A DNA stretch of 64,000 bases from Magnetospirillum sp. WYHS-4. Its GTDB lineage: Bacteria > Pseudomonadota > Alphaproteobacteria > Rhodospirillales > GLO-3. The stretch is from positions 2,329 through 66,328 of the forward strand of contig JAMOBD010000006.1 in assembly GCA_039908345.1 (NCBI GenBank), read 5' to 3'. The notes below the pieces were generated by a model. That model searched no databases. It saw only the letters and a program-made list of their open reading frames with translations, and was not told the DNA's origin. The position numbers were made by a program, and so were the translations under genes. Positions 2,769 through 32,030 of this stretch are shown here, piece after piece (the first letter of the stretch is position 1; each line of letters begins with the position of its first letter).

Positions 2769-3009
2769 CCCCCATGGGATTCGCTCGATTCTTTACTCGT
2801 GTTAACCAAACCCGAGTCGCGGGCAAACTGTTTTTTGCGTCGATTCGTCATAGATGCCACAACATATGGGCTAAGTGCTTGAAGAGACTCTTCGATTAAC
2901 GCGGATATTTCTGCGTCTTGACAAGTCGTTTAAGCCAGGGATTCCGCTGATTAATCTTGTCAACATGAAGAATCGACGGCGAATCGCAGGCCTGTGGTAT
3001 AAGCCAGGC

Positions 3010-3894: not shown

Positions 3895-4076
3895 CCGGAA
3901 AAATCTTCACTCCCGACCCGGCAAATTCTTCCCAGGCGGCAAGTTCTTCCTCCTCTCCCTTATGGTTAATATCTTGTTTATCAAGGCTTCCGGCGCTGGC
4001 ACGGGGGTTGCGCTTGCAATGGGGAGGAAACAGGCCCCCGCTGGGACGAGGGGCCCGGACAGGAAGGACCAATACC

Positions 4077-4817
4077 GTGAAGCCCGAAACGGAAATCACC
4101 CGCTCCCCGCAGTCCGGCGAACCGACCAGCCAGGGCGACCTGGTCGCCAGCGTGACCTTGCTCGCCGAAGGTGCCGCCCGGATGGCCTGGGAGGGCCTCC
4201 CCGACGCTCCCCAATTGGCGCAATTGGCCGACCGCGCCTTGGCCTCCGCTGCCGAAGCGGAAGCCCGCTTGGCCGAACAAATGAGCCGCATCGTCGAACT
4301 GGAGCGCCTGGCGCTCACGGACGAACTGACCGGCATCTTGAACCGGCGCGGCTTCCAGCGCGAACTCACCCACGCCCTGGCCGCCGCGCGGCGCTACGAC
4401 GAAAAGGGCGTGCTGGTCTACGTGGACCTGGACGGCTTCAAGCCGATCAACGACACCTACGGCCATGCCGCCGGCGACGAGGTTCTCCGCAGGGTGGCCC
4501 GCATCCTGCAAGACAACGTGCGCGACACCGACGCGGTGGGGCGCATGGGCGGCGATGAATTCGCGGTGCTGCTGGCCCGCAGTTCCTGGGAAGACGGGTT
4601 GCGGCGAGCCGAGGCCCTCGACCGGGCGCTGAACAATGCCTTCATCGGTTGGGAAGGTCGCATGATCGCCATCCGCGCCAGCCTGGGCATCCAGGTCTAC
4701 GGCAACCAGGACGAAGACCAGGCGCTCCTCGAGCGCGCCGACGAGGACATGTACAAGTCGAAGCGGCTGCGTTCCGAGATCGGCAACCGGCGGGACGCCG
4801 GCCGGGCCCGGAACTGA
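4077..4817 (+). CDS. GGDEF-domain diguanylate cyclase
   Basis: 3' part of ORF 3138..4817. GTG start at 4077 preceded by AGGAAGGA. Motifs LTGILNRRGF and RMGGDEFAVLL. Confidence 0.8.
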   Translation: MKPETEITRSPQSGEPTSQGDLVASVTLLAEGAARMAWEGLPDAPQLAQLADRALASAAEAEARLAEQMSRIVELERLALTDELTGILNRRGFQRELTHALAAARRYDEKGVLVYVDLDGFKPINDTYGHAAGDEVLRRVARILQDNVRDTDAVGRMGGDEFAVLLARSSWEDGLRRAEALDRALNNAFIGWEGRMIAIRASLGIQVYGNQDEDQALLERADEDMYKSKRLRSEIGNRRDAGRARN

Positions 4818-4842
4818 AGCTGCCCGGGCAGGGGGAGACGCC

Positions 4843-5448
4843 ATGAAGATCGATCGCAACGCCAGCTACCTGGATCTGTTCAGCAGCCACAGCCTGCGGA
4901 GCCCGGCAGCCGTCGATCCCTCCCCCGCTCCGCCGCCGGCTCCCCAGCCCGACCTTCCCCCGATCGGCAAATCGCTGGTCAAGCTGGAGGCCGAGGCGGA
5001 CACCTCGGCCGGCGGGCGTTCGGACCTTCCCGCCGTCACCACCCCACCTCCCCTGCCCATCGCCACCGGAGAGGTGGAAACCGTCCCCAGCCGGGCCGAG
5101 GAAGGGCCACTGGCGGATATCCTGCGCGGTGTCAACGTCCGCCGCATGTCGCCCCGCGAGATGGCGAACTTGAGCCAGGATCTTTACGCCGCCGGAGTCT
5201 TGAGTTGGGACGAGTATTCCATGCTGGCCTACCAGTCGGAACTGCAACCCGGCTACGACCGCACCGTGGGCGCCCTGACCGGCCAGCCAGCCCAGCCCGA
5301 CAAGCCGCGCGACTTCATTGCCCTGTGGGAGGACCGCCTAGCCTTCGAGGAACGCCACAACCCGGCCGACAGCCGCCAGATCCAGACCAGCCGCCACATC
5401 CTGACGGTGCTCAAGCAGATCGCCTCGCCCACCAACTTCGTGGTCTAA
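4843..5448 (+). CDS. hypothetical protein with a proline-rich N-terminal half
   Basis: ORF 4843..5448, 25 nt after the GGDEF gene. No recognisable family. Confidence 0.5.
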   Translation: MKIDRNASYLDLFSSHSLRSPAAVDPSPAPPPAPQPDLPPIGKSLVKLEAEADTSAGGRSDLPAVTTPPPLPIATGEVETVPSRAEEGPLADILRGVNVRRMSPREMANLSQDLYAAGVLSWDEYSMLAYQSELQPGYDRTVGALTGQPAQPDKPRDFIALWEDRLAFEERHNPADSRQIQTSRHILTVLKQIASPTNFVV

Positions 5449-5481
5449 AGTCGATTCGATCCAAACGGCAATTGCTTCAGG

Positions 5482-8400
5482 CTACCCTGCCGGCTGCATG
5501 GTGACCAGCAGGTCCTTGGCGTCGACGGCGTCGCCCGAGGCCACATGAACCCGAACCACCGTCCCGTCGCATTCGGCGCGCACGGCGGTTTCCATCTTCA
5601 TCGCTTCGACGGCCAGCAGCACGTCGCCGCGCGCCACCGTCTGGCCGACCAGGACGGCCACGCTGACCACCGTTCCGGGCATGGGCGCTCCCACTTCGCA
5701 GGGATTGCCCTCGGCCGCCTTGGGGCGGGCATGGCGGGTCGGCGTGCGCGAACGGTCGACGACCCGAACGGAACGCGGCTGGCCGTTCAATTCGAAGAAG
5801 ACGGTGGCCTCGCCCGCATCGTCGGCCGGGCTTTTGGCCAGGTAGCGGACGATCAGGGTCTTGCCGGCGTCGATATCCAGCATGATCTCCTGTTCCGGCA
5901 CCATGCCGTGGAAGAAGACCGGGGTCGGCAGGACGCTCACGTCGCCGAAAGACTTCAGGTGCTCGGCGTACTCCAGAAACACCTTGGGATACATCAGCCA
6001 GGAGGCGAGATCGTTGTCGTCGATCTGGCGGCCGACCTTGTGTTCCACCTGAGCCTTGACGGCATCCAGATCGACCGGCCTCAGCACCTCGCCGGGCCGC
6101 ACCGTCAACGGCGTCTCGCCCTTCAAGACCTTCTTCTGCAAGGCCTCGGGGAAGCCGCCCACCGGCTGGCCCATCTCGCCCTTGAAGAACGAGACCACGG
6201 ATTCCGGGAACGCGATCTCGCGCGCCGGGTCCATGACCATTTCGGGGGTCAGGCTGTTGGTCACCATCATCAGCGCCATGTCGCCCACCACCTTGGATGA
6301 CGGGGTCACCTTGACGATGTCGCCGAACATCTCGTTGACCTGGGCATAGGCGCGGGCGATGTCGGGCCAGTGCTTTTCCAGACCCAGGGAGCGGGCCTGT
6401 TCCTTCAGGTTGGTGAACTGGCCGCCCGGCATCTCGTGCAGGTAGACCTCGGAGGCGCCGGAGTACTGGTGCGCCTCGAAGGCGCCGTAGTTCTTGCGCA
6501 CTTCCTCCCAGTAGGTGGAGACGGACCGGATGGCTTCCGCCGCCAGGCCGGTATCCCGCGGATGGCCGCGCAGCGCCTCGACGATGGACCCCAGGCAGGG
6601 CTGCGAGGTGGTGCCGCTCATGGAATCCATGGCGGCGTCCACCGCGTCGCAGCCCGCTTCCACCGCCGCCAACACGCTGGCGGCGCTAAGGCCGCTGGTG
6701 TCATGGGTGTGGAAATGGATGGGGATGCCGATCTCGTCCTTCAGGGCCTTGACCAGCAGGGTGGCGGCATGGGGCTTCAGCAGGCCGGCCATGTCCTTGA
6801 TGCCCAGGATGTGGGCGCCGGCCTTTTCCAACTCCTTGGCCATGGCGACGTAGTATCCCAGGCTGTACTTGGTGCGCCTGGGGTCCTGGATGTCGCCGGT
6901 ATAGCAGATGGCGGCCTCGCAAAGCTTGCCGGTCTCGCAGACGGCGTCCATGGCGACACGCATGTTCTCGACCCAGTTGAGCGAGTCGAAGACCCGGAAC
7001 AGGTCCATGCCGGCTTCCGCCGAACGCTTGACGAAGAACTTCACCACGTTGTCGGGGTAGTTGGTGTAGCCGACGCCGTTGGCCGAACGCAGCAGCATCT
7101 GGGTCAGCAGGTTGGGCAGGCGTTCGCGCAGGTTCGCCAAACGCTCCCAGGGGTCCTCCTTGAGGAAGCGCATGGCCACGTCGAAGGTCGCGCCCCCCCA
7201 GCATTCCAGGGACAGCAGTTCCGGCAGCAGCCGCGCGTAGGCGGGCGCCACGGCCAGCATGTCGTGGCTGCGCATGCGGGTGGCGAGCAGGGACTGATGG
7301 GCGTCGCGCATGGTGGTGTCGGTGACGAAGACCCGCCGCCCGGCTTCTTCCAGCATCCACTTCGAAAAGCCTTGGGCGCCCAGTTCGTCCAGCTTCTGGC
7401 GCGTGCCGGCTTCCCAGCCTTCGGCCAGGGGGCCGGGCAGGGTGGGGGCGACGAAGGCGTCGGGGGCCTTGCGGCCCTTCACCTCGGGATTGCCGTTGAC
7501 CATCACCTCGCCGATGAAATTCAACAGGCGGGTGGCGCGGTCGCGGCGCTTGGGGATGTGGAACAGCTCCGGCGTGTCGTCGATGAAGGTGGTGATGTAG
7601 TCGCCTTCGACGAAGCGCGGATGGTTCACCACGTTTTCCAGGAAACGCAGGTTGGTCTTCACCCCGCGCACCCGGAATTCGCGGAGCGCGCGATCCATGC
7701 GGAAGACGGCATCCTGGGCGTCCTGAGCCCAGGCGGTCACCTTGACCAACAGGCTGTCGTAGGACCGGGTGATGCGCGCACCCGTGTAGGCGGTGCCGGC
7801 GTCCAGGCGGATGCCGAAGCCGGCCGGGCTGCGATAGGCGGTGATCTGGCCGTAGTCGGGGGCGAAGTCGGACTCCGGGTCCTCGGCGGTGACGCGGCAC
7901 TGCAGGGCATGTCCCATCAAGGGGATGTCCTTTTGCGCCGGCAGGCCGCTGCCGGCCTCGCCGATCTTCTTGCCTTCGGCGACCAGGATCTGGGACCGGA
8001 TCAGGTCGTAGCCGGTGACGCATTCGGAAACCGTGTGTTCCACCTGGATGCGCGGATTGACTTCGATGAAGTAGAAGGCCCCGGTGTCGGCGTCCTGCAG
8101 GAATTCCACCGTACCGGCGTTGCGATAGTCGGCGGCGCGGGCCAGCTTCAGGGCGTAGGCCGTCAACTCGTCGCGCTGGCTCGCAGTCAAATAGGGGGCG
8201 GGGGCGCGCTCCACCACCTTCTGATGGCGGCGCTGGACCGTACAGTCGCGCTCGTGGAAATGAACCACGTTGCCATGGGCGTCGCCCAGGATCTGCACTT
8301 CCACGTGGCGGGCACGGCGCACCAGCTTTTCCAGGTAGACCTCGTCGTTGCCGAAGGCCGCCTTGGCCTCGCGCCGGGCAGCCGCCACGCTGTCCAGCAG

Positions 8401-8949: not shown

Positions 8950-9041
8950 GACGACTCCTGCGGCCCTGCGGCCGTCCCACGGGTTGGGGCTTTTGTGCAA
9001 GTGCGAAATATGCTTCGAGATGAAGCCTCGCGCAACAGGAA

Positions 9042-10535
9042 TCAGGCGGCCGGCAGAGTAAGGAAGAAGGTACTGCCCTCCCCTTCCCGGCTTTCCACCC
9101 AGATGCGGCCCCCGTGGCGGTCGACGATGCGGCGGCAGACCGCCAGGCCGATGCCGGTGCCCGGATAGGCCGACCGGGCATGCAACCGCTGGAAGATTTG
9201 GAATATCCGGTCATAGGCGTCGGCGGGAATGCCGATACCGTTGTCGCGAATGGCAACACGCCAGAACCGGCCGTCGCGCACGGCTTCGATCCGCACCACC
9301 GGCGGCCGGTCGAGAGCCCGGTACTTCACCGCGTTGCCGATCAGGTTCTGCAGCAAGCGGACAAGCAAGGGCCCGTATCCGATCACCTCGGGCAGGGGAT
9401 CGTGCACAACCCGGGCCCCCGCCTCTTTGATGGCGACGGTAAGGTTGACCAGGGCTTCTTCCAGGGCTTCCTCCAGAGCGACCGGAACGAAGGTCACCTG
9501 GGCGCGGTCGACGCGGGAATATTCCAACAGATCGTTTATCATGGCCTGCAACCGGGTGGCGCCGTCCATCAGGTAGCCCATGAACTCCTTGCCGTCGGCG
9601 TCGAGTTGGCCGCCCAGTCGCTTTTCCAACAGGGCGGCGTAGCTGGAGATCATACGCAACGGCTCGCGCAGGTCGTGGGAGGCCACGTAGGCGAAATGCT
9701 CCAGTTCCTGGTTGGAGCGACGTAGTTCGGCGGTACGGGCCGCCACGATGGCTTCCTGTTCGGCCTTGGCGGCGGACAGCGCCAGCCAGTGGCGCCGCTG
9801 GCGCCACACGAAGAGCGCCGTCCCCAGGGAAGCGAGCAGGAACATGGCAAGATGAAGGACCATGGTTTGTTGCCGTTGGGCCTCCATGGGCTTGAGAATG
9901 GAGGCGGCGGGAATGGTGACGCTGATCCCGCCACGCACGTCGCCCACCTTGTAGCCCTGCTTGGCATGGCATTTCAGGCAAGGTTCGCGTACCGGCAAGG
10001 CGGCCATGTAGCGAAAGACCGGCGGCTGTTCGGACAGATATTCCAGGACTTCCCGTTCCCCGGCATCGAAGCGCCGCAAAGCCTGGGTTTCCCAGGAATC
10101 GGCCTGATTGGCCGGACGGATCGGGTTCAGGCTGGTGATGTGGAAGGTAACGTCCTGGCGCTTCTGCACCAGTTCGGCGATCTGGCGCGTCATGTAGGCC
10201 GGGTTCAACAGCGTGAACCGCCGTCCCAACGCCTCGAAGTCGCGATCCGGCACGTCCAGGTAAGGATTGGGCGGCGTCTCGTCGGTCGCCACAGCGTAGA
10301 CTCCGCCGTGGCGCGCGTTCCACAGGCGCGTCGTTTCGATCATGTCGAACAGCATGCGCGACCGGTTGCCCGCGGTTTCCATGGCCTGCCGCCGCAGGAT
10401 GCCGAAGTCGTGCAACAAGGAAACGCCGACCACCAAGGCCCAGGCGAGAGACGTCGCCAGGTAGATGAACAGTGGCCTCTGGACCCACCACATGGGACGG
10501 TTCACCCAAGAACTCGCCCCCCCGAAAGGGACCAT
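9042..10535 (-). CDS. sensor histidine kinase with a periplasmic CXXCH (heme-c, DUF3365/Tll0287-like) sensor domain
   Basis: ORF 9042..10700. Two hydrophobic helices flank a domain containing CLKCH. H-box FAYVASHDLREPL and ATPase motifs GTGIGLAVCRRIV. Start uncertain (ATG 10535 or 10493). Confidence 0.8.
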   Translation of the reverse strand: MVPFGGASSWVNRPMWWVQRPLFIYLATSLAWALVVGVSLLHDFGILRRQAMETAGNRSRMLFDMIETTRLWNARHGGVYAVATDETPPNPYLDVPDRDFEALGRRFTLLNPAYMTRQIAELVQKRQDVTFHITSLNPIRPANQADSWETQALRRFDAGEREVLEYLSEQPPVFRYMAALPVREPCLKCHAKQGYKVGDVRGGISVTIPAASILKPMEAQRQQTMVLHLAMFLLASLGTALFVWRQRRHWLALSAAKAEQEAIVAARTAELRRSNQELEHFAYVASHDLREPLRMISSYAALLEKRLGGQLDADGKEFMGYLMDGATRLQAMINDLLEYSRVDRAQVTFVPVALEEALEEALVNLTVAIKEAGARVVHDPLPEVIGYGPLLVRLLQNLIGNAVKYRALDRPPVVRIEAVRDGRFWRVAIRDNGIGIPADAYDRIFQIFQRLHARSAYPGTGIGLAVCRRIVDRHGGRIWVESREGEGSTFFLTLPAA

Positions 10536-10625: not shown

Positions 10626-11141
10626 ATGTCCTCCTTCGATGGGGTAAGCGCCTTTACGGGCTATGTGTCCGGCACCTATATGACCGTGTCCGAATTCCAA
10701 CCGGTGCCGAGTTGGGAAGGGCAGGCTGTACCCGTTGCTTCCAAGCGCGTCATCGAGGATACCGTCACCTTGAGCGACAAGGCCCAGTCCTACCTGGAGC
10801 AGAAGGCACGTGCCGGAACGGCGGAAGGCAAAGCCACGCCCTTTCGCAATCCCGACCCGGCGAACTTGGTGGGCGCCGATATGTCGGGCAAGGATTTCTC
10901 GGGCGTCGATTTGACGCGGGCTTTCCTATATCGGGCGAACCTAGCCAATGCGGATTTCTCCAAGGCGACACTCAAGGACGCCTGGATATCCGAATCCGAT
11001 GTGGCGGGAGCCAATTTCGAGGGCGCCGACCTGCGGGGAGCGAATCTGGCCAAGACCAAGAACCTGACCCGCGACCAGCTCAAGGATGCCCTGGTCGACC
11101 TTTCCACCATCCTGCCCTTCGCCCTGCGCCTGGAACGCTGA
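10626..11141 (+). CDS. pentapeptide-repeat protein
   Basis: 3' part of ORF 9789..11141. ATG 10626 preceded by GAAGGAGAGAAGGAA. Repeats such as ADMSGKDFSGVDLTRAFLYRANLANADFSKATL. Confidence 0.75.
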   Translation: MSSFDGVSAFTGYVSGTYMTVSEFQPVPSWEGQAVPVASKRVIEDTVTLSDKAQSYLEQKARAGTAEGKATPFRNPDPANLVGADMSGKDFSGVDLTRAFLYRANLANADFSKATLKDAWISESDVAGANFEGADLRGANLAKTKNLTRDQLKDALVDLSTILPFALRLER

Positions 11142-11144
11142 AGG

Positions 11145-12248
11145 CTAATCCTCCCGCGAGGCGCCGGCCCGGCCCAGGCTATGGCGATCGATAGCGACCG
11201 CCTTGACCAGGGCATGCACCGCCATGCCTTCCTTCAGGTCCAGGTCGACCAGGGATCTGCGGGTGATGCGGGCGATCAGCGGCGCGCCGATGTCGAGCAG
11301 CACGTCCACCTGGGGCGCCTGGCTGTCCTCGATCCGTGCCACGCGGCCGGGAAAGACGTTGAGCACGCTGGTGCGCACCGGCCGCTCCATGGCGATGGTC
11401 ACGTCACGGGCCCGTATCCGCACCCTGAGGCTCCGTCCCTCTTCCAAATCCAGGCGCGCGACCCGCAGGATGTGCGGGCCGAAAGCCAGCGCGGTGAGGC
11501 CGAACTCGGCGTCGTGGGCGACCACCCGGGCGGAGATCACCGCCCCGGCCTCGTGGCGGCCGGTGACCGGATGAAGGTCGAGGCGGCACATCAATTCCTC
11601 CACTCCGCCCACCGCCGCCACCCTGCCCTCCGACAGAAGCACCAGGGTATCGGCCAAGCGGATGACCTCCTCGATGGCATGGCTGACATAAAGAATGGGG
11701 ATGCCCGCCTCGTCTCGCAGGCGCTCGACGAGCGGCAGGATTTCCGCCTTGCGCGGCGCGTCGAGGGAGGCCAGGGGTTCGTCCATCAGCAGGAGGCGCG
11801 GATGGGCCAGCACCGCCCGCCCGATGGCCACCCGTTGCGCCTCACCGCCCGACAAACGGTCCGGATGGCGCTCCAACATGGAGCCCAACCCCAGGATATC
11901 GACCACCTTGTCGAAGCCGATGCCCGGCGCTGCGGCGCGGCGGCGGGTCCCGTAGGTCAGGTTGGCCCTGACCGTAAGGTGGGGAAACAGACTGGGCTCC
12001 TGGAACACGTAGCCCACGGGCCGGCGATGGGGAGGCAGGAAGGTGGTTTCGTCCTGCCAGACATCGCCGTCCACCACCAGACGGCTCCCCGGCAGGCGCA
12101 CCAAGCCGGCCAGGCAGCGCAGTACCGTGGTCTTGCCGCTTCCCGAGGCGCCGAACAGGGCGGTGACGGCACGCACCGAAGCATCGAAGGCCACGTCGAG
12201 GGTAAAGGTTCCAAGGGTACCGGAAAGGTGAACGGAAAGGCGGCTCAT
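11145..12248 (-). CDS. modC: molybdate ABC transporter ATP-binding protein ModC
   Basis: ORF 11145..12350 trimmed to MSRLSVHL (ATGA overlap with the modB stop). Walker [10 protein letters not shown], signature LSGGEAQRV, and a C-terminal Mop/TOBE-like domain. Confidence 0.9.
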
Positions 12249-12932: not shown

Positions 12933-13673
12933 CTATTCGGCAGCGTAGCCGAACTTGCTGACGATCGCCAAGGCCTCGGGGGTCTTGAGGAAGGCGAGCA
13001 AGGCCTTGGCCGCGGGATTGGCTGCGCCGGGCCTGAGCATGACGGCCTGCTGGACGATGGGGCGGTAAAGGTGGTCCGGGACCGGCCATCGGGACCCCGA
13101 ACCGTCCAGCACCACCTGGGCCAGGGCGACGAATCCCAGGTCGGCGGCGCCGGTGGCCACGAACTGGTGGGCCTGGGCGATGCTGTCGCCATAGACCAGT
13201 TTGGCCTCGATGCCCGGCATCAGACCCAGGTTGCCGAGTACGTCCAACGCTGCCGCCCCGTAGGGCGCGGTCTTCGGGTTGGCGATGGATAGCTTGTTGA
13301 ATCCGCCGCCGCGCAGCACCTCGCCCCTGCCATCGACCAAGCCGGGCTTGGCGCTCCACAGGACCAATTTGCCCACCGCATAGGTGAAGCGGGTTCCGGC
13401 GATGGCCAAGCCCTCCGCCTCCGCCCTGGCCGGATGTTCGGCATCGGCGGCCAGGAAGACCTCGAAGGGCGCCCCGTTCGCCAGTTGGACGTAGAACTTG
13501 CCGGTGGACCCGAAGCTGAGGCTCGCCTTGTGCCCGCTGGCACGTTCGAAGGCGATGGCGATCTCCTTCATCGGGGCGGTGAAGTTGGCGGCGACGGCCG
13601 CCTTGACCTCGGCGGCGCGGGCGGGCACGACGGCTAGGCCCAAGGCAACCGCGGACAAGAAAAGAATCTTCAC
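12933..13673 (-). CDS. modA: molybdate ABC transporter substrate-binding protein ModA
   Basis: ORF 12933..13673. Signal peptide [20 protein letters not shown]. ModA-type sequence ([21 protein letters not shown]). Confidence 0.9.
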
Positions 13674-14302: not shown

Positions 14303-14668
14303 ATGAAAAGCCAGATCGTCTACAAGGACCACCGCCGCAAGGACATGCGAATCCCGACGCCGGAACTGGCCCTGCTGGTCGACGGGCGGATCTGGCGCAC
14401 GTTGGACTGGAGTCTCGGCGGCTTCCTGCTGCGCCACTACCGTGGCCACCTGAAGGCCGGCGACCGCTTCGAAGTGCGAGGCATCGGGGGCATCGGCGGC
14501 GCTCTGGCCCCCGTCTTCCTGCGCGCCCGGGTCGTGCGGGTGGAACGGGGCGGCCGCTTGGCGGCCCAGTTCCTCGGACTATCCGAGGCTGGGTTCGAGA
14601 CCTTGGAAAGCCTGATGATCCACCGCGCGACGCTACACCACCAACCCGCCCATCACGCCATTCCATAG
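14303..14668 (+). CDS. PilZ-domain (c-di-GMP-binding) protein
   Basis: ORF 14303..14668. RRxxxR (RRKDMR) and DxSxxG (DWSLGG) motifs. Confidence 0.75.
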   Translation: MKSQIVYKDHRRKDMRIPTPELALLVDGRIWRTLDWSLGGFLLRHYRGHLKAGDRFEVRGIGGIGGALAPVFLRARVVRVERGGRLAAQFLGLSEAGFETLESLMIHRATLHHQPAHHAIP

Positions 14669-14717: not shown

Positions 14718-16040
14718 TTAGGAAGCCGATCCGTGGTTGCAGTCGTTGGCTTTGCGGCAGCCGTCGCAAATGCGGGCCACTTCGTCGATATCGGGTGCCA
14801 GAGGACAAGGCAATTTGGTCAAGCGCCAAATCCTGACCTCCGAGTCCTCGGCGATATCCTTGCTTGCATAAGGAACCTTTTCGCCCCCGATATCGCAGGC
14901 GCGAAGGTCCTTGGCGAGTTCGTGATAGGCATTGCCCGACATCTGGATGATTCCGGCCTTGGCGGAATCGGACAGGCGGCAGGCCTCCACCACCCCGCGG
15001 CCGACGACAATGGGATTTTGCGTATGGTCGAGCCGCCAGTGGGCATCGGCGACGGAAATTCCGACGCCAGCCCCGAAGTCGGCGCGGTCATGATGGAGAA
15101 ACTCCCGCAGATCCTTCAGCAGGCACTCGACCGCCGCGATCAGGGCGCCGGCGCAGCGGACCGCCACCGTCACCGGGCTCTCCTTCTTGAGTTCCCTGAC
15201 TTCCTCGTCCAGGAAATGGACGATGATGCCGTCCCCGGTGAACTTGTCGAACACCCCAAGGTTCTGCCGGACGATGGTCGACAGGACCGTCAGCAACACA
15301 TCCATCCAGCAGGCGAAATGCTTGGGACTGTCGGCTTCCCGCATGGCGAAGGTCGATTTGCGCAGGTCGAGGGTCAGAGTGACGGTGCGGCGGCGCCCGT
15401 TCCAGGGCGGCAACAGGCGCCGTATCCCTTCCCGAGCCTTGCCGACATGGAGACTTTCGGAATCCCAATACCTGCGGGAAATCTCCGGCGCGAACCCCCG
15501 ATAGACGTTGCAGCGCTGGCGCATGGCCTCGATCAGAATCTCGGCGATGGTTACCCATTCCTGATAGTCGGTCTTGCTAAATGCTGCAGCCAAATCCAGT
15601 TCAGGAGCGCTCGTCGAAGGCAATTCATCGTATTTTGTGCCTTTCAACATAAACACCACGAATGCCTTGTCAGCGCGGCTACTCTGTGGCCACACGACAA
15701 CCATCTTGACACCGGAACCGCACGCCGAGCTTGTTATTGCCCGAATTTCATGGACATCCGTCTGCGGTACATTTTGCGAGGCGACTCGAACCGCAGCATC
15801 AAATATAGAAACAATTTTGTCCTTATATTTAATGCGAAACGCAGAGCGCAACGATATGAAGCTGTAACTCCACCATGGCAACCAAACTGAGATTCCGTCT
15901 ACATTGAAGGTTCCTAGGATGCTCCTGATGGCGCGAGACAGATTAATGTCGACATCTGTTGTGTGCCCAATCTGTCCCGTAAGCGTAGACACAATAACAG
16001 GTACGGTCTTCAGGCAATTATTTTGGTTAATGCGTGTCAT
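14718..16040 (-). CDS. class III nucleotidyl-cyclase-domain protein with an unknown ~220-aa N-terminal domain
   Basis: ORF 14718..16052 trimmed to ATG 16040 (ATGA overlap with the REC gene stop). C-terminal half has LTLDLRKSTF, FDKFTGDGIIVHF, GAGVGISVADAHW and VVGRGVVEACRLSDSAKAGIIQMS, matching the cyclase homology domain layout. Confidence 0.75.
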   Translation of the reverse strand: MTRINQNNCLKTVPVIVSTLTGQIGHTTDVDINLSRAIRSILGTFNVDGISVWLPWWSYSFISLRSAFRIKYKDKIVSIFDAAVRVASQNVPQTDVHEIRAITSSACGSGVKMVVVWPQSSRADKAFVVFMLKGTKYDELPSTSAPELDLAAAFSKTDYQEWVTIAEILIEAMRQRCNVYRGFAPEISRRYWDSESLHVGKAREGIRRLLPPWNGRRRTVTLTLDLRKSTFAMREADSPKHFACWMDVLLTVLSTIVRQNLGVFDKFTGDGIIVHFLDEEVRELKKESPVTVAVRCAGALIAAVECLLKDLREFLHHDRADFGAGVGISVADAHWRLDHTQNPIVVGRGVVEACRLSDSAKAGIIQMSGNAYHELAKDLRACDIGGEKVPYASKDIAEDSEVRIWRLTKLPCPLAPDIDEVARICDGCRKANDCNHGSAS

Positions 16041-16567
16041 ATTTTCACACAAGACACTATGAAATCTATAGAATTGGCAATTCTTGCAACAAAGCTAACG
16101 ATATTCACGGGTTTATGAAAAATATTGTCGCTTTTTATTTCTTGAACAACCACATCAGGGAGATCTTGAGGATATGCCGTCAGAAAGAAAATTTGATGCG
16201 TTGGTCGATCCTTAATTCCCTGCAAGACATTGATGCCAACCGGCTCCATGCCATTTTCTGTCTGACGGAACAGGTCCAGGATGATCAGCGCCGGCGCCCC
16301 ATCGAGCTTCTCCACCTCCATGGTAAAGTTCTCAGTCTTTTCGAGAATCCGGTAACCGATTCGAATCTTCTGGCCGTAGCGTTCGAGCGTCAGGTCGGCG
16401 CTCAGGTCATCATCGGCTTCCCGAAGGGCATCGTCGTCATCCAGCAAGGACGGATCTTCCGCACAGTAATGGTCATAAAGGGCAGCGGGGATCCAGGAGA
16501 CGACCTCCGGCTCGTCCTCGTAATGCAACACCATGACTTGGATCGGGGAAGGGGAGGTTTCGGTCAT
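16037..16567 (-). CDS. stand-alone response-regulator receiver (REC) protein with an acidic insertion
   Basis: ORF 16037..16567. VMVLHYEDEP (acidic pair), ALIILDL (phospho-acceptor Asp), IFFLTAY (Thr) and FHKP (Lys) match CheY-type REC landmarks. ATGA overlaps on both sides. Confidence 0.7.
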   Translation of the reverse strand: MTETSPSPIQVMVLHYEDEPEVVSWIPAALYDHYCAEDPSLLDDDDALREADDDLSADLTLERYGQKIRIGYRILEKTENFTMEVEKLDGAPALIILDLFRQTENGMEPVGINVLQGIKDRPTHQIFFLTAYPQDLPDVVVQEIKSDNIFHKPVNIVSFVARIANSIDFIVSCVKI

Positions 16568-18855
16568 AGGTATCTCGGCGCCTTGGGAAGGAAGATGGTG
16601 AAGACGGTCAACGCACCGTCGGTTCCGGTACGGCCACGCAGGGTCGACTGGATCTCGATCCGGGCCTGGGAATCGTGGGCTTGCAGGATCTTCCGGGCGA
16701 CCGCCACCCCCAATCCCGTTCCCGGACGCCGGGCGTCGGGATTGGCGGCATGGAGGCGCCGAAAGGGTTCGAAAATGGCCTCCCGCTGCTCTTCCGGGAT
16801 GTGATCGCCCACGTTGGACACGGCAATGGCCCAGCCGCCGGCCCGATACGGCTTGACGTCGATCTGTACGATCTGATCCCGATAGGAATACTTGACCGCG
16901 TTTTCGATGATGTTGAACAGCAGGATGTAGACGAGATCGCGATCCATCTTGCCGGTTCGCGAAGGCTTGGGCAGCATATGACCATTGACGATGATGTCGA
17001 GCCCCCGCCGCTCCGCCTCCGGCCGCAGGCAGAGGGTGACCTCGGCAATCAGGTCGAGGATGTCGCAGTCGATCACCTTCAGCGACTCCGGCGCGATGCG
17101 GTCCAGGATGAAGCGGGATTCGTCGACCAGGATGCGCGTCTTCTCGGCGAACAGGCGGGCCCGCGCCAGGCTTTTATGGAACCGGGCACTATCGACCAGG
17201 CGCCGGAAAGCCAGCGAGGGGTCCCGGTCCTTGAAATTCCGCCACCTAGTGTTGGCCACGGTCATATGGCCGATCATTCCCTGCAGCCCCGAGCGGACAT
17301 TGTGGCGAATTTGAATCAGGTCCTCGACCTTGCTTTTCATGTGGTGCTTGTCGGACAGGAAGCGGGCGACTTCCCGGCAGAGGTAGCGGACGATGTCCCG
17401 CTTGTACCCCGGCAGCCAGGGGTCCATGATGCCGACCGCCATGACCGCCTTCCGATTGTCGATATCGAAAAGCTTCTGAATCAGAACGGCCTGGCCGTTC
17501 GGCAGATTCGCCACCCCGTCGGGCCAATGGACGGTGCGGCGCAGGTCGTCTTCCAGGGTCTGGAACCGAGCGTCGCTCAGCGTGACCTGCCCGTCCGCAT
17601 CCACGATGGCGCTGAACTGGGTTTCCGGAATGGTTTCCGCCAACAGGTCGAAGGCCACCCTGGGCTCGAAGTTGTCGGAAGTCCCGATTTCCGCCAGTCG
17701 CCGCGCAATGCCCTGCAGCGCCCCTTGCAGGGTCGCCACGGGAACGATGTTCGACAAGGCTTCGGCGATCTTCTCCACCATTTTCTGATCGGTCTCGCTG
17801 AAGGCCGTGTAGACGCGGCTGAGGGGATTCTTCTTGAACGCCTGAATCAGGCAGATCACGCCCTTTTCCGACTTGTCCGGCTCCAGCCCCACCGCATCCA
17901 CCAGGACCGGCACACACATCCAGGACAGGCGATGTCCGGGGCGCAGTACACTCTGGAATCCGGAGGGCGTGGGCCCGAACAGGGTCTCCATCTCGGCGAC
18001 GTCCAACCGATCCCGCACCCGCACCGATTTCCTGTTCTGCCAAACCTGGCGGAGAAACGGGTTGTTTTCGATGGGGGGAACCCGAAGCTTGGGCGGATGT
18101 GGCGCCGAATACGCGACAACCCCGGACGCCTGGGAGATGTGGGGATAGGATATCGTGCAAAGCGCAGCCCGCGTATCGCGCCGCACGATGGCGGCCGCCG
18201 CTTTCAGCGTCGCATCGATGTCGCCGCGACCGCCTTCCAGGGAGTTCAGTTCCGAAAGCGCGTTCCAGATGCGATGGTTGCGGCTGTTCTCGATCTTGCC
18301 GGCGATGGCCGTGACCAGGGCGCGGCAGGCCTCCGGCAGGCTCTCGCTACGGTGGGGCATGACGATCTGGATCACCCCCAGCGGCTTCCCCGCCTTTTCG
18401 GGATCGTGGCTTTCCAGCGGCAGGAATTCTTCGGCAAGGGCCGTAACATCGGCGCCCTTCCCCGCCAACCATCCCCCGATAACCGCGTTGCCCCGGAAGG
18501 ACAACCGGCCATGAAGCTTGTCCATGTCCGCGGCGTCGGCATCTCCTAGGCACAGGTGGCATCCTTCCAGCCCGCGAGCCACGACCCCGATGGACGCGCC
18601 GCCCTTGTCCAATTCCTTGGCGTAGACCTGATCCAGGCGGATTTCCGGCCCGGAAGCGCCGCTGTCGAACAGCCACTGGAAAAGAAACACCCGAGGCGTT
18701 TCCAGGAGATCGGCCATGAATCTCAGGAGTTCAAGGCGTTCCTCGGTCAACGAGACGCTGGAAAACGGCTGGCTGATCAGTGAAACCAACTTATCGAGGT
18801 TAAGCGTCGCACCGCCGCTTTTTCTCGGGGACAATGAAAACATCCCACACCCCAT
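16564..18855 (-). CDS. soluble sensor histidine kinase with a long GAF-like N-terminal region
   Basis: ORF 16564..18855. No hydrophobic TM segment seen. H-box IQIRHNVRSGL, N-box FNIIENAVKYS, G-boxes SNVGDHI and GTGLGVAVARKI. Start could also be ATG 18843. Confidence 0.8.
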   Translation of the reverse strand: MGCGMFSLSPRKSGGATLNLDKLVSLISQPFSSVSLTEERLELLRFMADLLETPRVFLFQWLFDSGASGPEIRLDQVYAKELDKGGASIGVVARGLEGCHLCLGDADAADMDKLHGRLSFRGNAVIGGWLAGKGADVTALAEEFLPLESHDPEKAGKPLGVIQIVMPHRSESLPEACRALVTAIAGKIENSRNHRIWNALSELNSLEGGRGDIDATLKAAAAIVRRDTRAALCTISYPHISQASGVVAYSAPHPPKLRVPPIENNPFLRQVWQNRKSVRVRDRLDVAEMETLFGPTPSGFQSVLRPGHRLSWMCVPVLVDAVGLEPDKSEKGVICLIQAFKKNPLSRVYTAFSETDQKMVEKIAEALSNIVPVATLQGALQGIARRLAEIGTSDNFEPRVAFDLLAETIPETQFSAIVDADGQVTLSDARFQTLEDDLRRTVHWPDGVANLPNGQAVLIQKLFDIDNRKAVMAVGIMDPWLPGYKRDIVRYLCREVARFLSDKHHMKSKVEDLIQIRHNVRSGLQGMIGHMTVANTRWRNFKDRDPSLAFRRLVDSARFHKSLARARLFAEKTRILVDESRFILDRIAPESLKVIDCDILDLIAEVTLCLRPEAERRGLDIIVNGHMLPKPSRTGKMDRDLVYILLFNIIENAVKYSYRDQIVQIDVKPYRAGGWAIAVSNVGDHIPEEQREAIFEPFRRLHAANPDARRPGTGLGVAVARKILQAHDSQARIEIQSTLRGRTGTDGALTVFTIFLPKAPRYL

Positions 18856-19056
18856 GCCGCATGCCGCACCACTATTGACTATAACAATTTCGCAATAAAA
18901 TTCCAGAGGTTAGTTCATGTGCGATTTTACGCCCTTTTGGCTTGCATTCGCAGCCAAGGAAAGGAGGCCGGGCGACAGGCCGACGCGCGCGCTTCAGACA
19001 CGAATAGGGGAGGAGCACCGGCCCCTCCCCTTCGCAAAGCAGGTCCGAAGACCCTA

Positions 19057-25491: not shown

Positions 25492-26232
25492 ATGTGGACC
25501 GACGCGGTCGACTTGCGGGACTTCTACGCCACCAGCCTGGGGCGGGTGGCGGGGCGGGTCATCGCCAACCAAGTGCGCCAGATATGGCCCGACGTCAAAG
25601 GGATGAACGTCCTGGGCCTGGGCTTCGCCACGCCCTTCCTCAACCCCTTCCGCAACGAGGCGGCGCGGCTGCTGGCGGCCATGCCGGCCCAGCAGGGCGT
25701 GCTGCCCTGGCCGACGGAGGGGCGCAACCTGACGACCCTTGTGGACGAAGCCGACCTGCCGTTTCCCGACCTGTCCATGGACCGGGTATTGCTCGTCCAC
25801 GGCCTGGAATGCGCCGAACCTCTGCGTCCCATGATGCGCGAGATCTGGCGGGTGCTGGCCGGCGGAGGCCGGCTATTGGTGGTGGTGCCCAACCGGCGCG
25901 GGCTCTGGGCCCGTTTCGAGCGCAGCCCATTCGGCCACGGCCGGCCCTATTCATCGGGCCAGCTTTCCCGCGCCTTGCGCGATTGCCTGTTCACCCCGGC
26001 CCAGTCCTACCCGGCATTGTTCGTCCCGCCCTTGCGCTCGCGCACGGTTCTGAGTACGGCCCGCGCATGGGAAACCCTGGGTCAGCGCTGGTTCCCGGCG
26101 TTCGGTGGGGTAGTGATGATCGAGGCCACCAAACAGATCTACGCCGGCCACCTCGCCACCCCCCTGCCCAAACGCGCCAAGGGCTACCTCCCTTTAGCGC
26201 AAAGACGCACGACACCGCAGGCGAGGGGGTAG
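25492..26232 (+). CDS. class I SAM-dependent methyltransferase
   Basis: 3' part of ORF 25330..26232 from MWTDAVDLRDFY. VLGLGFATP (motif I-like) and the DRVLLVHGLE...LAGGGRLLVVVPN pattern. Confidence 0.7.
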   Translation: MWTDAVDLRDFYATSLGRVAGRVIANQVRQIWPDVKGMNVLGLGFATPFLNPFRNEAARLLAAMPAQQGVLPWPTEGRNLTTLVDEADLPFPDLSMDRVLLVHGLECAEPLRPMMREIWRVLAGGGRLLVVVPNRRGLWARFERSPFGHGRPYSSGQLSRALRDCLFTPAQSYPALFVPPLRSRTVLSTARAWETLGQRWFPAFGGVVMIEATKQIYAGHLATPLPKRAKGYLPLAQRRTTPQARG

Positions 26233-26273
26233 GCGAGGCGATTCGTAATCAGCCGTTGATTGCTGATGACACA

Positions 26274-26279
26274 TATAAT
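26274..26279 (+). promoter_or_regulatory. candidate -10 hexamer (TATAAT) just outside the left inverted repeat
   Basis: Perfect TATAAT 55 nt upstream of ATG 26335. No well-spaced -35 found (TTGATT is only 12 nt away). Confidence 0.3.
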
Positions 26280-26313
26280 ATACCATGCGATGGAGTTTAG
26301 GGTATGTATGAAA

Positions 26314-26339
26314 GATAACTAAGAATTATCGAAGATGGA
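26314..26339. repeat. left copy of a perfect 26-bp inverted repeat (GATAACTAAGAATTATCGAAGATGGA)
   Basis: Exact reverse complement of 32005..32030. Contains the ATG (26335) of the STAND gene and an internal dyad GATAA-N7-TTATC. Confidence 0.95.
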
Positions 26340-29300
26340 AGGTCACATTTACAGTCCTCAGGACCTACTGGATATGCGGTGGGACCGTTTTGAGACGCTG
26401 GTCGTTGATACGATCCGTCAATTATACGGCCAATACCAGATTTCGACCGAGCAAACGTCGCTTAGCCATGATGGCGGCCGGGATGCAGAGTCCCATCATG
26501 TGCTGGCGATCGGACTTGGCGAAGACCTTTCTGTGAGCGTAAGAGTATTTCTCGAGGTAAAGAAAAGATCGACCGAAAATGTTGGCAAAGGTGATATTGG
26601 ATCTCATCTTATAGACGCCTTCGCCAACAAAGTAACGAAGATCATTTTCGTCACTAATAGTGATTTTTCAGAAAATTTACCTTTGTGGATTGGCGCGTTT
26701 TGCGCACCGCTTAATATTCAGTTCAGCTTGATTAATGGCGTACGCCTTATTAAACTGTTAAACAACGAGATTGGAAATCCACAGGTTCCAGATAGGACAG
26801 TCGATGATCAGATCATCGGCAAGGTAACCTTCTCGCTTTCTCCAACCGATGCGCTTCCGAGCAGCGCCAAATGCATGGTACGGCCTGATCGGCCAGTTTT
26901 TGCCATCATTGATGTCGCCATCGGTGAAGACGTGGCGCCGTTCTATGCCAAATTATCCATGAGGCTGATCGATGAGGACGCGGCCTCGATATTCGGCATA
27001 AATGACACGCAGTCACAGCCAATTCTCCTGTCTCCGGGCACACGCCGGCGCTGGGTTTTCGCCATTTGGCCTGGCCTGGCCGGACACTGGGACGGCTGTG
27101 ATTTCAACATCGACCAGGAAGGTTTCCCGAGCCCGTTACGGCTGTCGGTCATCAATTCCTTCCAGGTCTCTGAAATCGGCCTTCAGCCGATGATGGTCGG
27201 TGGTCAGAAGACCGCCTACAAGCAGATCCAATCCGCATTGAATACTTGGCGCAACACTGGTGGAAGCGCCCTTCGCATATTGCTTTCCCCCGGCGGTTTA
27301 GGCAAATCGTTTCTGATCGGATGCCTTAGGCGGGATATCCAGTCATGGGGTATCAGGACGTTGATGCTTGATGGGGAAGCCATCGAGTCGGATACGGCAC
27401 TGATAACGGCTAGCTTCACCACCTTGTTTCCGTTTGCACGCAACTCTTTCGAGCCGGGGCTGAAACCAGCCCTGCTCCGCTGGCTGGAATGCTTGGATCT
27501 GTCGCCGCAGCTACGCCGGCTCGTTGCCGATGATCTGTGTGATTCCGGCAGGTTACGGGCCGATAATTACAATCCGGCTATTCGGGCTCAATTATTGGCG
27601 GCCCTTCTCGCCGAGGCCGGAGCGGCACGGGGCCTGGTATTCATTTTCGAAGACCTTCACAAGGTTCCTCCCTCTGTTTTGTCCCTGCTGGCGGACACGC
27701 TGCGCCAACTCCGCTCGACCGGAATGGGCAACATCTTCCTTTTGCTGACATCGCGTCCGTTCTCTGACAGCGGCACCCACGATCTTGCTCGCGACTGGCT
27801 GCAGCGGCTTCAGAAAATCTCGGCGCTGGCCGAGGATGCGCTGCTGCATTTGCGCCCCCTTCAAGACGATGAAGCCCGGCAGCTTCTGCGCAGCACGGTG
27901 CCCACTCTGTCGGAGGCGCAGACTGAAAGCATTATCCAGCAAGTGGGAACATCGCCGTTCAATCTTCGAGAAGCGGTTCTTTATCTGAAGCTGTTGGGGC
28001 TTTTGGGATATGTCGGAACCGGGCAGACCCCGGTTCTTTTACGGCCGGACAAGTTAAACGCGCTGCTTGGTCATGACGGGTTGAAAACCACCACGCAGAA
28101 AAGACTGCAGGTGTTCTTTAAGAACCAACCCTCATGGCTGCAAAAGATGGTTGAGGCAGGCGCCTGTTATGGTCGTCAGTTTCCATTCCGGGAGACCGCC
28201 GCCGTCGCCCTCATGCCGGACAGCGAAGACGCACTGGACGCTTTGGATGAATGCGCTCGTTGGAGCATCGTCCTTCCGGTGCCTGGCTGCGCTGAGTTGA
28301 TCGAATTCGACCATGATCTGGTGCGCGCGGCCCTGCTGAGCGGATTGGCTCCGCACAAGCATCAAAGACTGGCCAGTGGATTGCTGGCCGAGCTGGAAGC
28401 TGACGCCGACGCTTTGCTGCTGTCGTCGCTTGCTTATCAGGCAGGCCAGGCGGAAAAGGCCTTCACCTTCGCCCGAACGGCTGCCAAGGCTGGCAGCGAA
28501 CGGGGGCGTCCTGCGGATGCATTGCGCGCCAACTACATTGCATTACTGACACTCGATCCGGCATGGGCGAGCCAGAATGAGGGGGATGACAGCTGGATTG
28601 ATCTCGCGATTCAGGTCGCAGCTCCGGCTCGCCGCGACTTCGACAATTGGCAGGCACGCGACCGTGAGGCGCTGGCAATCCTGCTGGATAATCTTCAAAG
28701 CCTGGGAAGCGTCTCGTCGGGAAGTGGACGATTGAGCGATGCCATCCTCAGCGAAGCGAGAATGGTCGCCGAACGGCTGCAAGACCATGGATGCATTGCC
28801 GCTCTCACGGCCATGCAGGGGCGAATGCTGTTCGAGCAAAATGACGTCGCCAAGGCCTTGGCTCACCATGAAGAGGCCGAGCGGATTTTCAACGAACAGG
28901 GGCTGATGCGAAATATTGAGCGTGCTGAAAATCTGATCCGATTGGCGATCTGCCTTCGACAGAACGGGCGCACGGAGGATTCCTTGAACGCCCTTGGCCA
29001 GGCAATCAGTCATCGGCCGAAAGCCGCCTGGTCACTGCTGAACAAGGTCCGCTCGAACCTGGGAGCCATTTATCTGCGATCAGACTGGACCGTCGTACGC
29101 TATCACTGGGAACGGCAGCTCCGCTCTGCCAGGGTCCACGGCCTGCTGTCGCGCCAGGCTCATGCCCTTGCCAGCCTATCCTTTATCAACCTGTTTGACG
29201 GGCGTTTAGCCGAAGGCCGCCGGCAGGCAGAGGAAAGTCTTCTGATCGCCCGCCGACACGAGATGGAAAACACCGCGCTGCGGTGTGATCTCAACCTTTC

Positions 29301-29748
29301 CGTTGCCTGGCTGATGGAGGGCAATGCCGAAGCGGCACTGCAATGCTTGGGCGAAGCGGAAGCCATTGCTTTGCGGCATAATGTCGGCCGCCGTCTCTGG
29401 CGGGTATATGCCAATCTCGCCACCACCTGGGAGATACTGGGTGATGACGCCAAGGCGGTCGCGCATGACATCCAGACACTGACCTGCCTGGATGCGACCA
29501 ATTGGGAAGCGGACAGGATTGCCCGTCATGGGCGCGAGCTTCTGCCATTGATCAATCTTGCGTCACGCACTCTGGCGAATCCAGACACTTATGGGGCTGC
29601 ATTGGCGCTGATGAATCCCGCATGCCGTGACGGGTTGCTTCTGCTGGCGCAAAACCTGGAAGATGGTCAGGCCACCGTCTTATCCCCCGTCAATCTGAAA
29701 TATCGTGTCCCGATCTATGGGCGTCACCGTTTCCTCATCACCGAATGA
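26335..29748 (+). CDS. STAND NTPase with an N-terminal Mrr/PD-(D/E)xK nuclease-like domain and C-terminal TPR-like repeats (Avs/AVAST-like)
   Basis: ORF 26335..29748. N-terminus has FETLVVDTIRQLYG, GGRD(50), LE(74)VK(76), IIFVTNSDFS and LINGVRLIKLL, which fits the Mrr_cat layout. Walker A SPGGLGKS (res ~318-325), Walker B LVFIFEDLH (~434-442), LLLTSRP. The C-terminal ~500 aa are helical repeats. Confidence 0.8.
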   Translation: MEGHIYSPQDLLDMRWDRFETLVVDTIRQLYGQYQISTEQTSLSHDGGRDAESHHVLAIGLGEDLSVSVRVFLEVKKRSTENVGKGDIGSHLIDAFANKVTKIIFVTNSDFSENLPLWIGAFCAPLNIQFSLINGVRLIKLLNNEIGNPQVPDRTVDDQIIGKVTFSLSPTDALPSSAKCMVRPDRPVFAIIDVAIGEDVAPFYAKLSMRLIDEDAASIFGINDTQSQPILLSPGTRRRWVFAIWPGLAGHWDGCDFNIDQEGFPSPLRLSVINSFQVSEIGLQPMMVGGQKTAYKQIQSALNTWRNTGGSALRILLSPGGLGKSFLIGCLRRDIQSWGIRTLMLDGEAIESDTALITASFTTLFPFARNSFEPGLKPALLRWLECLDLSPQLRRLVADDLCDSGRLRADNYNPAIRAQLLAALLAEAGAARGLVFIFEDLHKVPPSVLSLLADTLRQLRSTGMGNIFLLLTSRPFSDSGTHDLARDWLQRLQKISALAEDALLHLRPLQDDEARQLLRSTVPTLSEAQTESIIQQVGTSPFNLREAVLYLKLLGLLGYVGTGQTPVLLRPDKLNALLGHDGLKTTTQKRLQVFFKNQPSWLQKMVEAGACYGRQFPFRETAAVALMPDSEDALDALDECARWSIVLPVPGCAELIEFDHDLVRAALLSGLAPHKHQRLASGLLAELEADADALLLSSLAYQAGQAEKAFTFARTAAKAGSERGRPADALRANYIALLTLDPAWASQNEGDDSWIDLAIQVAAPARRDFDNWQARDREALAILLDNLQSLGSVSSGSGRLSDAILSEARMVAERLQDHGCIAALTAMQGRMLFEQNDVAKALAHHEEAERIFNEQGLMRNIERAENLIRLAICLRQNGRTEDSLNALGQAISHRPKAAWSLLNKVRSNLGAIYLRSDWTVVRYHWERQLRSARVHGLLSRQAHALASLSFINLFDGRLAEGRRQAEESLLIARRHEMENTALRCDLNLSVAWLMEGNAEAALQCLGEAEAIALRHNVGRRLWRVYANLATTWEILGDDAKAVAHDIQTLTCLDATNWEADRIARHGRELLPLINLASRTLANPDTYGAALALMNPACRDGLLLLAQNLEDGQATVLSPVNLKYRVPIYGRHRFLITE

Positions 29749-32009: not shown

Positions 32010-32030
32010 CTTCGATAATTCTTAGTTATC
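32005..32030. repeat. right copy of the perfect 26-bp inverted repeat
   Basis: TCCATCTTCGATAATTCTTAGTTATC is the reverse complement of 26314..26339. Contains the ATG of the GT gene (32009) and the GAT AAC TAA end of the recombinase gene. Confidence 0.95.

Follow-up and report, generated by a model that had tools for sequence, protein, structure and literature searches.

A histidine kinase–receiver–cyclase operon in Magnetospirillum sp. WYHS-4 as a candidate Pycsar-like signalling module

In canonical two-gene Pycsar systems, sensor and enzyme are combined in one small protein, and to our knowledge it is not known how Pycsar cyclases sense infection. The gene order of clade F Pycsar has been reported as PycTM-PycC (PMC13069673). 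Detocs, a defensive system of a different kind, consists of a kinase (DtcA), a stand-alone receiver (DtcB) and a receiver-effector (DtcC) (10.1101/2023.01.24.525353). In the cyanobacterial protein CyaC, a single polypeptide carries the order REC-GAF-GAF-HK-REC-cyclase (REC, receiver; HK, histidine kinase); for Spirulina CyaC, phosphotransfer from kinase to receiver is intramolecular and the phosphorylated proximal receiver activates the cyclase (PMC3009899). Ambrosia joins a two-component system to restriction-modification-like genes, and its receiver, which bears a winged helix-turn-helix, is proposed to act on transcription (10.1101/2025.09.30.679545). Here we describe a three-gene operon encoding a sensor histidine kinase, a stand-alone receiver and a class III cyclase protein in a 64 kb stretch of Magnetospirillum sp. 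WYHS-4, a metagenome-assembled genome (MAG); this whole stretch is hereafter the window. Our best explanation, to which we would give an even chance, is that the block is a horizontally acquired, Pycsar-like module, gated by a phosphorelay from kinase through receiver to cyclase, whose effector is lacking in this genome.

The trio resembles each of these systems in part. As in Pycsar, its class III-fold cyclase matches PycC models, if weakly, and in three relatives the operon includes or adjoins a gene, placed first, for a full-length two-helix PycTM effector. Unlike in Pycsar, effector and cyclase are separated in these loci by a histidine kinase and a stand-alone receiver, the cyclase has a GAF/PAS-like N-terminal domain (N-domain), and most family members, the window copy included, have no effector. 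With Detocs the trio shares a mobile, patchy distribution and a three-gene operon of cytoplasmic sensor kinase, stand-alone receiver and output enzyme. However, its sensor is a GAF array where that of Detocs is made of tetratricopeptide repeats, and its output protein lacks a receiver domain and is a cyclase, not an ATP nucleosidase or another killing domain. None of the three proteins matched the Detocs models in PADLOC at E<=1, and the kinase found only PDC-M43B there, via its ATPase domain. CyaC has the same parts and logic (GAF sensor, histidine kinase, receiver, class III cyclase), whereas the trio is split into three translationally coupled proteins, its receiver is highly divergent and carries an insertion, and its cyclase has a sensor-like domain of its own and belongs to a PycC-like branch undetected by Pfam Guanylate_cyc. 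Ambrosia is likewise a recently reported defence operon with an embedded kinase and receiver; the trio receiver differs in having no output domain, its partner being an enzyme. We found no description of a kinase–receiver–PycC-like cassette in the literature within reach of our search, which excluded most subscription-journal papers.

All three open reading frames (ORFs) are intact in the window and lie on the minus strand. They encode the sensor histidine kinase, 763 amino acids (aa), at 16567-18855 (stop codon 16564-16566; ORF 16564-18855); the divergent, stand-alone receiver, 176 aa, at 16040-16567 (stop 16037-16039; ORF 16037-16567); and the cyclase protein, 440 aa from the ATG at 16040, at 14721-16040 (stop 14718-14720; ORF 14718-16040). 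Both the kinase/receiver and the receiver/cyclase junctions read ATGA on the minus strand (16567..16564 and 16040..16037), as a first-pass annotation made from the sequence alone had described. Identical proteins in NCBI are H7841_03445, H7841_03450 and a ‘GAF domain-containing sensor histidine kinase’. The ordinary neighbours recognised in that annotation are also present, with PilZ and ModE-like helix-turn-helix (HTH) genes, joined here by ModA, on one side and the ATP-sulfurylase gene sat on the other.

The block had further been called AT-rich, and it is: G+C content (GC) is 0.65 over the window and 0.42–0.49 at 15500-16500 in 500-nt windows. In 120-nt windows a trough of 0.33–0.55 (15560-16280, no strand assigned) covers cyclase aa 1-165 and receiver aa 96-176, that is, the receiver from its phospho-acceptor D98 onward together with the cyclase N-domain. 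The receiver and the N-terminal part of the cyclase have a third-position GC of 0.57, whereas the kinase and the C-terminal part of the cyclase reach 0.80, so that the difference lies in codon usage, beyond amino-acid content alone. Such a pattern would arise if the C-terminal half of the receiver had been swapped in as a block together with the cyclase N-domain.

With the cyclase protein as the entry point, homologous loci were gathered from species-representative genomes, metagenomes and exact-match contigs, and then searched with hidden Markov models (HMMs) of the three families. Kinase and receiver genes lie upstream of the cyclase gene, in the same order and orientation, at 33 of the 34 loci that were informative, meaning that enough upstream DNA was present (29 complete, 4 partial). 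The trio is thus a conserved unit, and the suggestion that neighbourhood analysis might reveal a three-gene linkage proved correct. Its hosts span at least six phyla, with representatives among the Alpha- and Betaproteobacteria, Planctomycetes, Acidobacteriota, Binatia, Verrucomicrobia and Flavobacteriaceae. They include Azospirillum, Reyranella, Stappiaceae, Erythrobacter, Sulfuricella and Planctomyces, as well as Schlesneria, Acidobacteriota, Binatia, Verrucomicrobiaceae and Flavobacteriaceae. Despite identities of 20–40%, homology extends over the whole of each of the three proteins across these phyla. The family is rare: of 1.84 billion representatives searched, 143 clusters matched at E<=1e-30. 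In L003, L009 and L011 the ORFs that seemed to form a fourth gene before the kinase are Arg/Pro/Gly-rich shadow ORFs and were rejected.

The connection to Pycsar comes from the relatives. Directly upstream of the kinase in a Flavobacteriaceae MAG (locus L012) and in Erythrobacter (L016) there is an ORF of 186–204 aa with two transmembrane helices, on the same strand and overlapping the kinase start codon; a third locus, L170, has a 194-aa PycTM gene divergent from the kinase. All three genes match Pfam PycTM (PF18967) above the gathering score, and PADLOC PycTM models align near end-to-end (1.8e-11 for L012, 1.6e-20 for L016 and 6.7e-9 for L170). In a neighbour-joining tree of the catalytic domain, the loci with PycTM are interspersed with effector-less loci and form no separate clade. 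Because these three relatives have PycTM in or next to the operon, the earlier mention of Pycsar becomes a concrete lead. For the same reason a conflict or anti-phage role, as a Pycsar whose cyclase is commanded by a dedicated two-component sensor, is most likely at the level of the family. A bolder version, in which the family is an undescribed anti-phage type, a Pycsar switched on by a dedicated phosphorelay, with the window trio as a trans-acting or modular core for varied effectors, is offered tentatively, as one possibility.

The effector that marks a Pycsar system, present in these three relatives, is absent from the window copy. The first-pass annotation had proposed a self-contained module; with no effector near the trio the module in the window is not self-contained. 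Its accompanying remark that no effector able to bind cyclic nucleoside monophosphates (cNMPs) is encoded alongside overlooks the GAF domains, GAF being a classic cNMP-binding fold.

Direct Pfam scans of the receiver and of the cyclase protein were empty, and profiles built from syntenic homologues were therefore needed. The cyclase protein returned nothing from Pfam, Guanylate_cyc included. Its AlphaFold2 (AF2) model is confident (predicted local distance difference test, pLDDT, 88.9; predicted template modelling score 0.89). In that model the N-domain (aa 9-179; 15504-16016, minus strand) is predicted to have the order H-H-E-E-H-E-E-E-H (helix, H; strand, E) at pLDDT 80–93, and residues 156-196 form a long helical linker. 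The class III cyclase homology domain (aa 205-400; 14841-15428, minus strand), supported by invariant columns in 58 homologues and by alignment to CyaB, is modelled at pLDDT 95–98. Foldseek matched the protein to CyaB (3r5g), Cya2 (2w01), CyaC (1wc1) and mycobacterial cyclases, with template modelling scores relative to the target of 0.7–0.8 for CyaB, Cya2, CyaC and Rv1900c. The top match, a phytochrome-cyclase chimera, aligned with the full length of the protein, and the solved Pycsar cUMP synthase PycC (7r65) was one among many similar matches. The cyclase domain described earlier has the class III fold, and the domain of about 220 aa that had seemed unassignable folds confidently as a GAF/PAS-like alpha/beta N-domain. 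Its strands are antiparallel in the model and lack the alternating beta-alpha pattern of a receiver, and the receiver HMM found no match in it. The N-domain varies more than any other part across the family, most homologues aligning over only the C-terminal 55–60%. The idea that the N-domain and the kinase sensor are paralogues was discarded after profile-profile comparison (probability 0.5%, no similarity). In NCBI the annotated cyclase protein (P0001) consists of the C-terminal 291 aa alone, without the AT-rich N-domain part; the full 440-aa ORF is supported by modelled pLDDT of 85–93 at residues 10-100 and by its homologues.

Within the catalytic domain D225, D270, K266 and R355 are invariant in the 58 homologues. 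The metal-binding aspartates are encoded at 15366-15368 (D225) and 15231-15233 (D270), both on the minus strand. They are spaced by 45 residues, the PycC spacing being reported as 44, and the specificity positions of EaPycC correspond to T223, K266 and T268, from which no substrate was predicted (PMC11224242). Six PADLOC PycC models match the protein, the best with 9.8e-9 over residues 220-379.

The nearest relatives outside the trio family form a much larger sister family of stand-alone cyclases of about 355–390 aa with a helical N-terminus (L017-L082, L100-L165, L172, L173) and the motifs GVFDKFTGDG and VVGxPVVYACR, common in Bacteroidota and in many other phyla. They have neither conserved neighbours nor PycTM. 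We considered whether members of this group (L017-L082) are canonical Pycsar cyclases and rejected the idea: their matches to PycC are just as weak, and they are flanked by housekeeping genes without PycTM, TIR or cNMP-binding domains.

The sensor part of the kinase comprises the N-terminal ~500 aa, including a GAF domain, followed by the dimerisation and histidine phosphotransfer (DHp) domain and HATPase_c. In Pfam the window protein matched HATPase_c alone (5.8e-16), with no match to HisKA, and the Pfam GAF models matched 4 of the 15 syntenic homologues from which the kinase profile was built. That profile matches HK853-type DHp and catalytic and ATP-binding (CA) domains at 3e-26 and, at profile positions 198-376, solved GAF domains of PtsP and PDE6C, the match to the cGMP-binding GAF-A of PDE6C being weak (E=0.0017). 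Converted from profile positions, and hence approximate, the GAF domain lies at about aa 195-372 (17740-18273, minus strand). As expected of a histidine kinase, the DHp histidine is set in an H-box, and the CA domain shows N and G boxes. H518 (codon 17302-17304, minus strand), in the H-box IRHNVRSGL aligned to that of HK853, is the predicted autophosphorylation site, and H518, N648, N652 and G712/G714/G716 are invariant in the 15 homologues. A hydropathy scan revealed no transmembrane segment, in agreement with the earlier view of a soluble kinase with a GAF-like sensory N-terminus. Word-indexed searches with kinase and receiver returned only the identical MAG proteins and generic kinases.

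The receiver domain is very divergent, as Pfam Response_reg is silent on all 15 family members, and the window protein itself had no Pfam match and weak NCBIfam response-regulator matches. The family profile nonetheless matches the receiver domains of YycF, CpxR, PhoP, PhoB and Spo0F (E 2e-8 to 1e-5). H15, D18, D98 and K152 are invariant across the family and T130 is mostly conserved; the window protein keeps D18, D98 and K152-P153, and thus the acidic pocket, the phospho-acceptor aspartate (D98 codon 16274-16276, minus strand) and the conserved lysine of a receiver. That the phospho-acceptor landmarks are retained had been read correctly from the sequence, and matches to solved receivers at E ~1e-7 agree with it. 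About 45 aa are inserted after beta1/alpha1. The single-sequence AF2 model of the receiver, at pLDDT 33, was unusable.

Natural variants of the operon bear on the order of events. At L170 a single kinase gene is followed by receiver, cyclase, receiver and cyclase. The two receivers share 26 consecutive identical N-terminal residues and 83% identity within the first 30 aa; beyond these, identity is mostly 20–50% and falls lower at the C-terminal tail. We infer that a shared kinase-docking face has probably been kept and that the output face has diverged with each cyclase. At L083 (7335-10004) kinase and receiver are fused in one protein of 889 aa. P0129 (878 aa) joins the kinase sensor region (HMM positions 28-407) to a cyclase protein, the kinase core and the receiver being absent; it is a single metagenomic protein and could be chimeric. 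Together with the low-GC segment of the window, these arrangements favour a likely direction from sensor to kinase, receiver and cyclase.

The same variants help to weigh two other ways of wiring the parts. Information might flow in reverse, the cyclase N-domain being the input, the nucleotide binding to the kinase GAF domain and the phosphorylated receiver serving as a CheY-like output. This would suit the classic role of GAF domains as cNMP receptors, the weak PDE6C GAF-A match of the kinase profile (E=0.0017), the sensor-like domain of the cyclase and the absence of any other cNMP receptor from the cassette. We consider it improbable, since the receiver-cyclase pairs behind one kinase in L170 fit receiver-to-cyclase pairing better than a kinase that reads two cyclases, P0129 joins the kinase sensor straight to the cyclase without kinase core or receiver, and the loci that have PycTM already possess a natural reader for the nucleotide. 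Less probable still is that the receiver is only a phosphate sink like DtcB, with the cyclase run by its own N-domain or by contact with the kinase. The precedent is Detocs, whose stand-alone receiver buffers a leaky kinase (10.1101/2023.01.24.525353), and the cyclase protein does lack a receiver domain that could accept the phosphoryl group. That same lack argues that the single receiver must act as a relay, not as a buffer: the cassette encodes no second receiver, and a sink would leave the kinase without a productive target. Each L170 cyclase, moreover, has its own diverged receiver, and the receiver is retained in all 33 loci with the trio.

For the forward, phosphorelay-gated arrangement, we infer from the architecture that the kinase would phosphorylate the receiver, as adjacency, ATGA coupling and the L083 fusion indirectly suggest, and that the receiver would gate the cyclase. 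In the mechanism that we propose, the soluble kinase would sense a cytoplasmic cue via its N-terminal GAF array and autophosphorylate at H518, and the phosphoryl group would move to D98 of the small, atypical receiver. The phosphorylated receiver would then dock on the GAF/PAS-like N-domain of the paired cyclase and let the class III catalytic dimer synthesise a cyclic mononucleotide. Judging from the relatives, this product may activate the Pycsar-type two-helix membrane effector PycTM; the window copy would either signal to a receptor encoded elsewhere or represent an effector-less core.

Horizontal acquisition, proposed earlier from the composition of the block, is supported across the family by unrelated contexts, by direct repeats in relatives and, in most loci, by a GC content below that of the host. 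The trio is lower in GC than its flanks in most loci (0.43–0.51 vs 0.69 in L003, 0.47 vs 0.62 in L088, 0.52 vs 0.71/0.61 in L089, 0.47 vs 0.64 in L169 and 0.45 vs 0.62 in L171), with a slight or absent deficit in L006, L014, L083, L167 and L170. Insertion contexts are unrelated, all different and mostly housekeeping. Direct repeats enclose the trio in L009 (475 nt, 96% identity; 5976-6450 and 10884-11358), where the 3′ part of an aldolase gene is duplicated, in L171 (194 nt, 93%; 335-528 and 4987-5179), where the 3′ end of an APH-like gene is duplicated, and in L098 (109 nt, 90%; 3921-4029 and 9033-9141). In L007 a repeat of 199 nt (86%; 5922-6120 and 13139-13334) brackets a larger region that includes the trio, the downstream copy lying ~2.3 kb past the cyclase gene. 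The bracketing repeats are host DNA, often duplicating the 3′ end of the adjacent host gene, yet the insert itself contains no integrase. A circular intermediate that carried part of the target gene and integrated in Campbell fashion would leave a pattern of this kind. Genes typically carried by conjugative elements (DUF736, HTH_17, Peptidase_S26 and SLT) adjoin the L170 system. The window copy was probably acquired horizontally as well, the evidence there being composition only. IMG/VR viral contigs hold only two distant stand-alone relatives of the cyclase, both from the sister family described above and without kinase or receiver.

Several observations weigh against a mobile Pycsar-like module. 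PycTM occurs in only 3 of ~30 loci, most of which have no recognisable effector; beside the window trio there is none, and the whole 64 kb contains no PycTM-like ORF. The expectation of a defence-island context was not borne out, the flanks in relatives being mostly housekeeping genes: among 143 flank proteins from 14 genome loci there were few PADLOC matches, and those to generic models (kinases, helicases), the Pfam content was mainly metabolic and transport genes, no known defence system lies next to the trio and defence genes are not enriched. No flanking direct repeats were found around the window copy, and sequenced plasmids and phages gave no match to the cyclase protein. One family member, at L084, occurs without kinase and receiver. 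The matches to PycC are weak (E ~1e-8), and a best match to PycC says little because PADLOC has no other class III cyclase model. Finally, in the residue alignment to CyaB an invariant valine (V351) occupies the position of the canonical transition-state asparagine; with this catalytic residue replaced throughout the family, cyclase activity and its product are uncertain.

At L084 (7735-11533) an unrelated 493-aa gene without a Pfam match precedes the gene for the cyclase protein P0024 (510 aa), and a Ser/Thr kinase gene lies nearby, divergently transcribed.

Much of this would also suit ordinary physiological signalling by a horizontally mobile operon, in which a metabolite- or redox-sensing GAF kinase and its receiver tune a cAMP or cGMP cyclase, receptors of the CRP type or others are encoded elsewhere and PycTM was recruited secondarily. 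Most loci lack an effector and are surrounded by housekeeping genes, K266 aligns with the lysine that specifies purines in canonical adenylate cyclases, and the expanded L170 system (1343-8311) adjoins a truncated Crp-like gene with cNMP-binding and HTH domains. The kinase–receiver–cyclase logic is known, too, from non-defence CyaC (PMC3009899). Against this stand the rare, patchy, cross-phylum distribution at 20–40% identity, the persistent GC deficit relative to the hosts with insertion scars in several relatives, the overlap of PycTM with the kinase start codon in L012 and L016, and a cyclase that matches PycC models and not Pfam Guanylate_cyc. On balance we regard ordinary signalling as rather unlikely, though it is the main rival of the Pycsar-like explanation.

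Whichever of the two applies, the trio cyclase is tied to a separate sensor kinase and to a relay protein with textbook phospho-acceptor residues, and as kinase, receiver and cyclase are separate proteins, input, relay and output can each be mutated and assayed separately (H518, D98 and D225/D270). If the Pycsar-like, anti-phage reading is true, the infection sensor would be a separate, identifiable protein, the GAF histidine kinase, which would open up the question of Pycsar activation. The operon would then be the second two-component system, after Detocs, that is itself an immune module rather than the regulator of one, and the first to feed a cyclic-nucleotide pathway. If the defence reading fails, the trio would be a clean natural CyaC-type circuit in three proteins, suited to studies of class III cyclase control by a single-domain receiver.

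Some features of the surroundings can be added. The AT-rich leader between the kinase start and the terminator-like hairpin of sat (18856-18935, minus strand, read from the sequence) is the probable promoter region of the operon; a consensus scan of this leader gave no promoter match. A PilZ-domain gene (14303-14668, plus strand; E=1.2e-5) converges with the 3′ end of the cyclase gene across a gap of ~50 bp. PilZ is a cyclic di-GMP receptor fold, so a receptor for a nucleotide second messenger adjoins the cassette; the gene is probably native to the host and unrelated to the cassette, because its GC is host-normal. Toxin-antitoxin genes lie near the trio in L085 (1162-1977, HEPN and nucleotidyltransferase), L090 (3915-4606, Phd-like and PIN) and L086 (3-371, PIN).

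A second low-GC island is found in the window at 26000-32000, ~7.5 kb from the trio, with GC of 0.47–0.60 against ~0.69 in its flanks. It contains an ORF on the plus strand (26335-29748) for a protein of 1137 aa, named ‘restriction endonuclease’ by NCBI, which had no sequence match in the PDB. By eye the N-terminus of this protein is PD-(D/E)xK-like, a P-loop (SPGGLGKS) and a Walker-B-like motif (IFEDLH) can be recognised, and the C-terminus resembles tetratricopeptide repeats, an arrangement like that of Avs/STAND-type defence proteins. Insolitispirillum peregrinum has a copy with at least 90% identity. The island adjoins a gene for a tyrosine recombinase (integrase-like ORF 32022-32969, minus strand).

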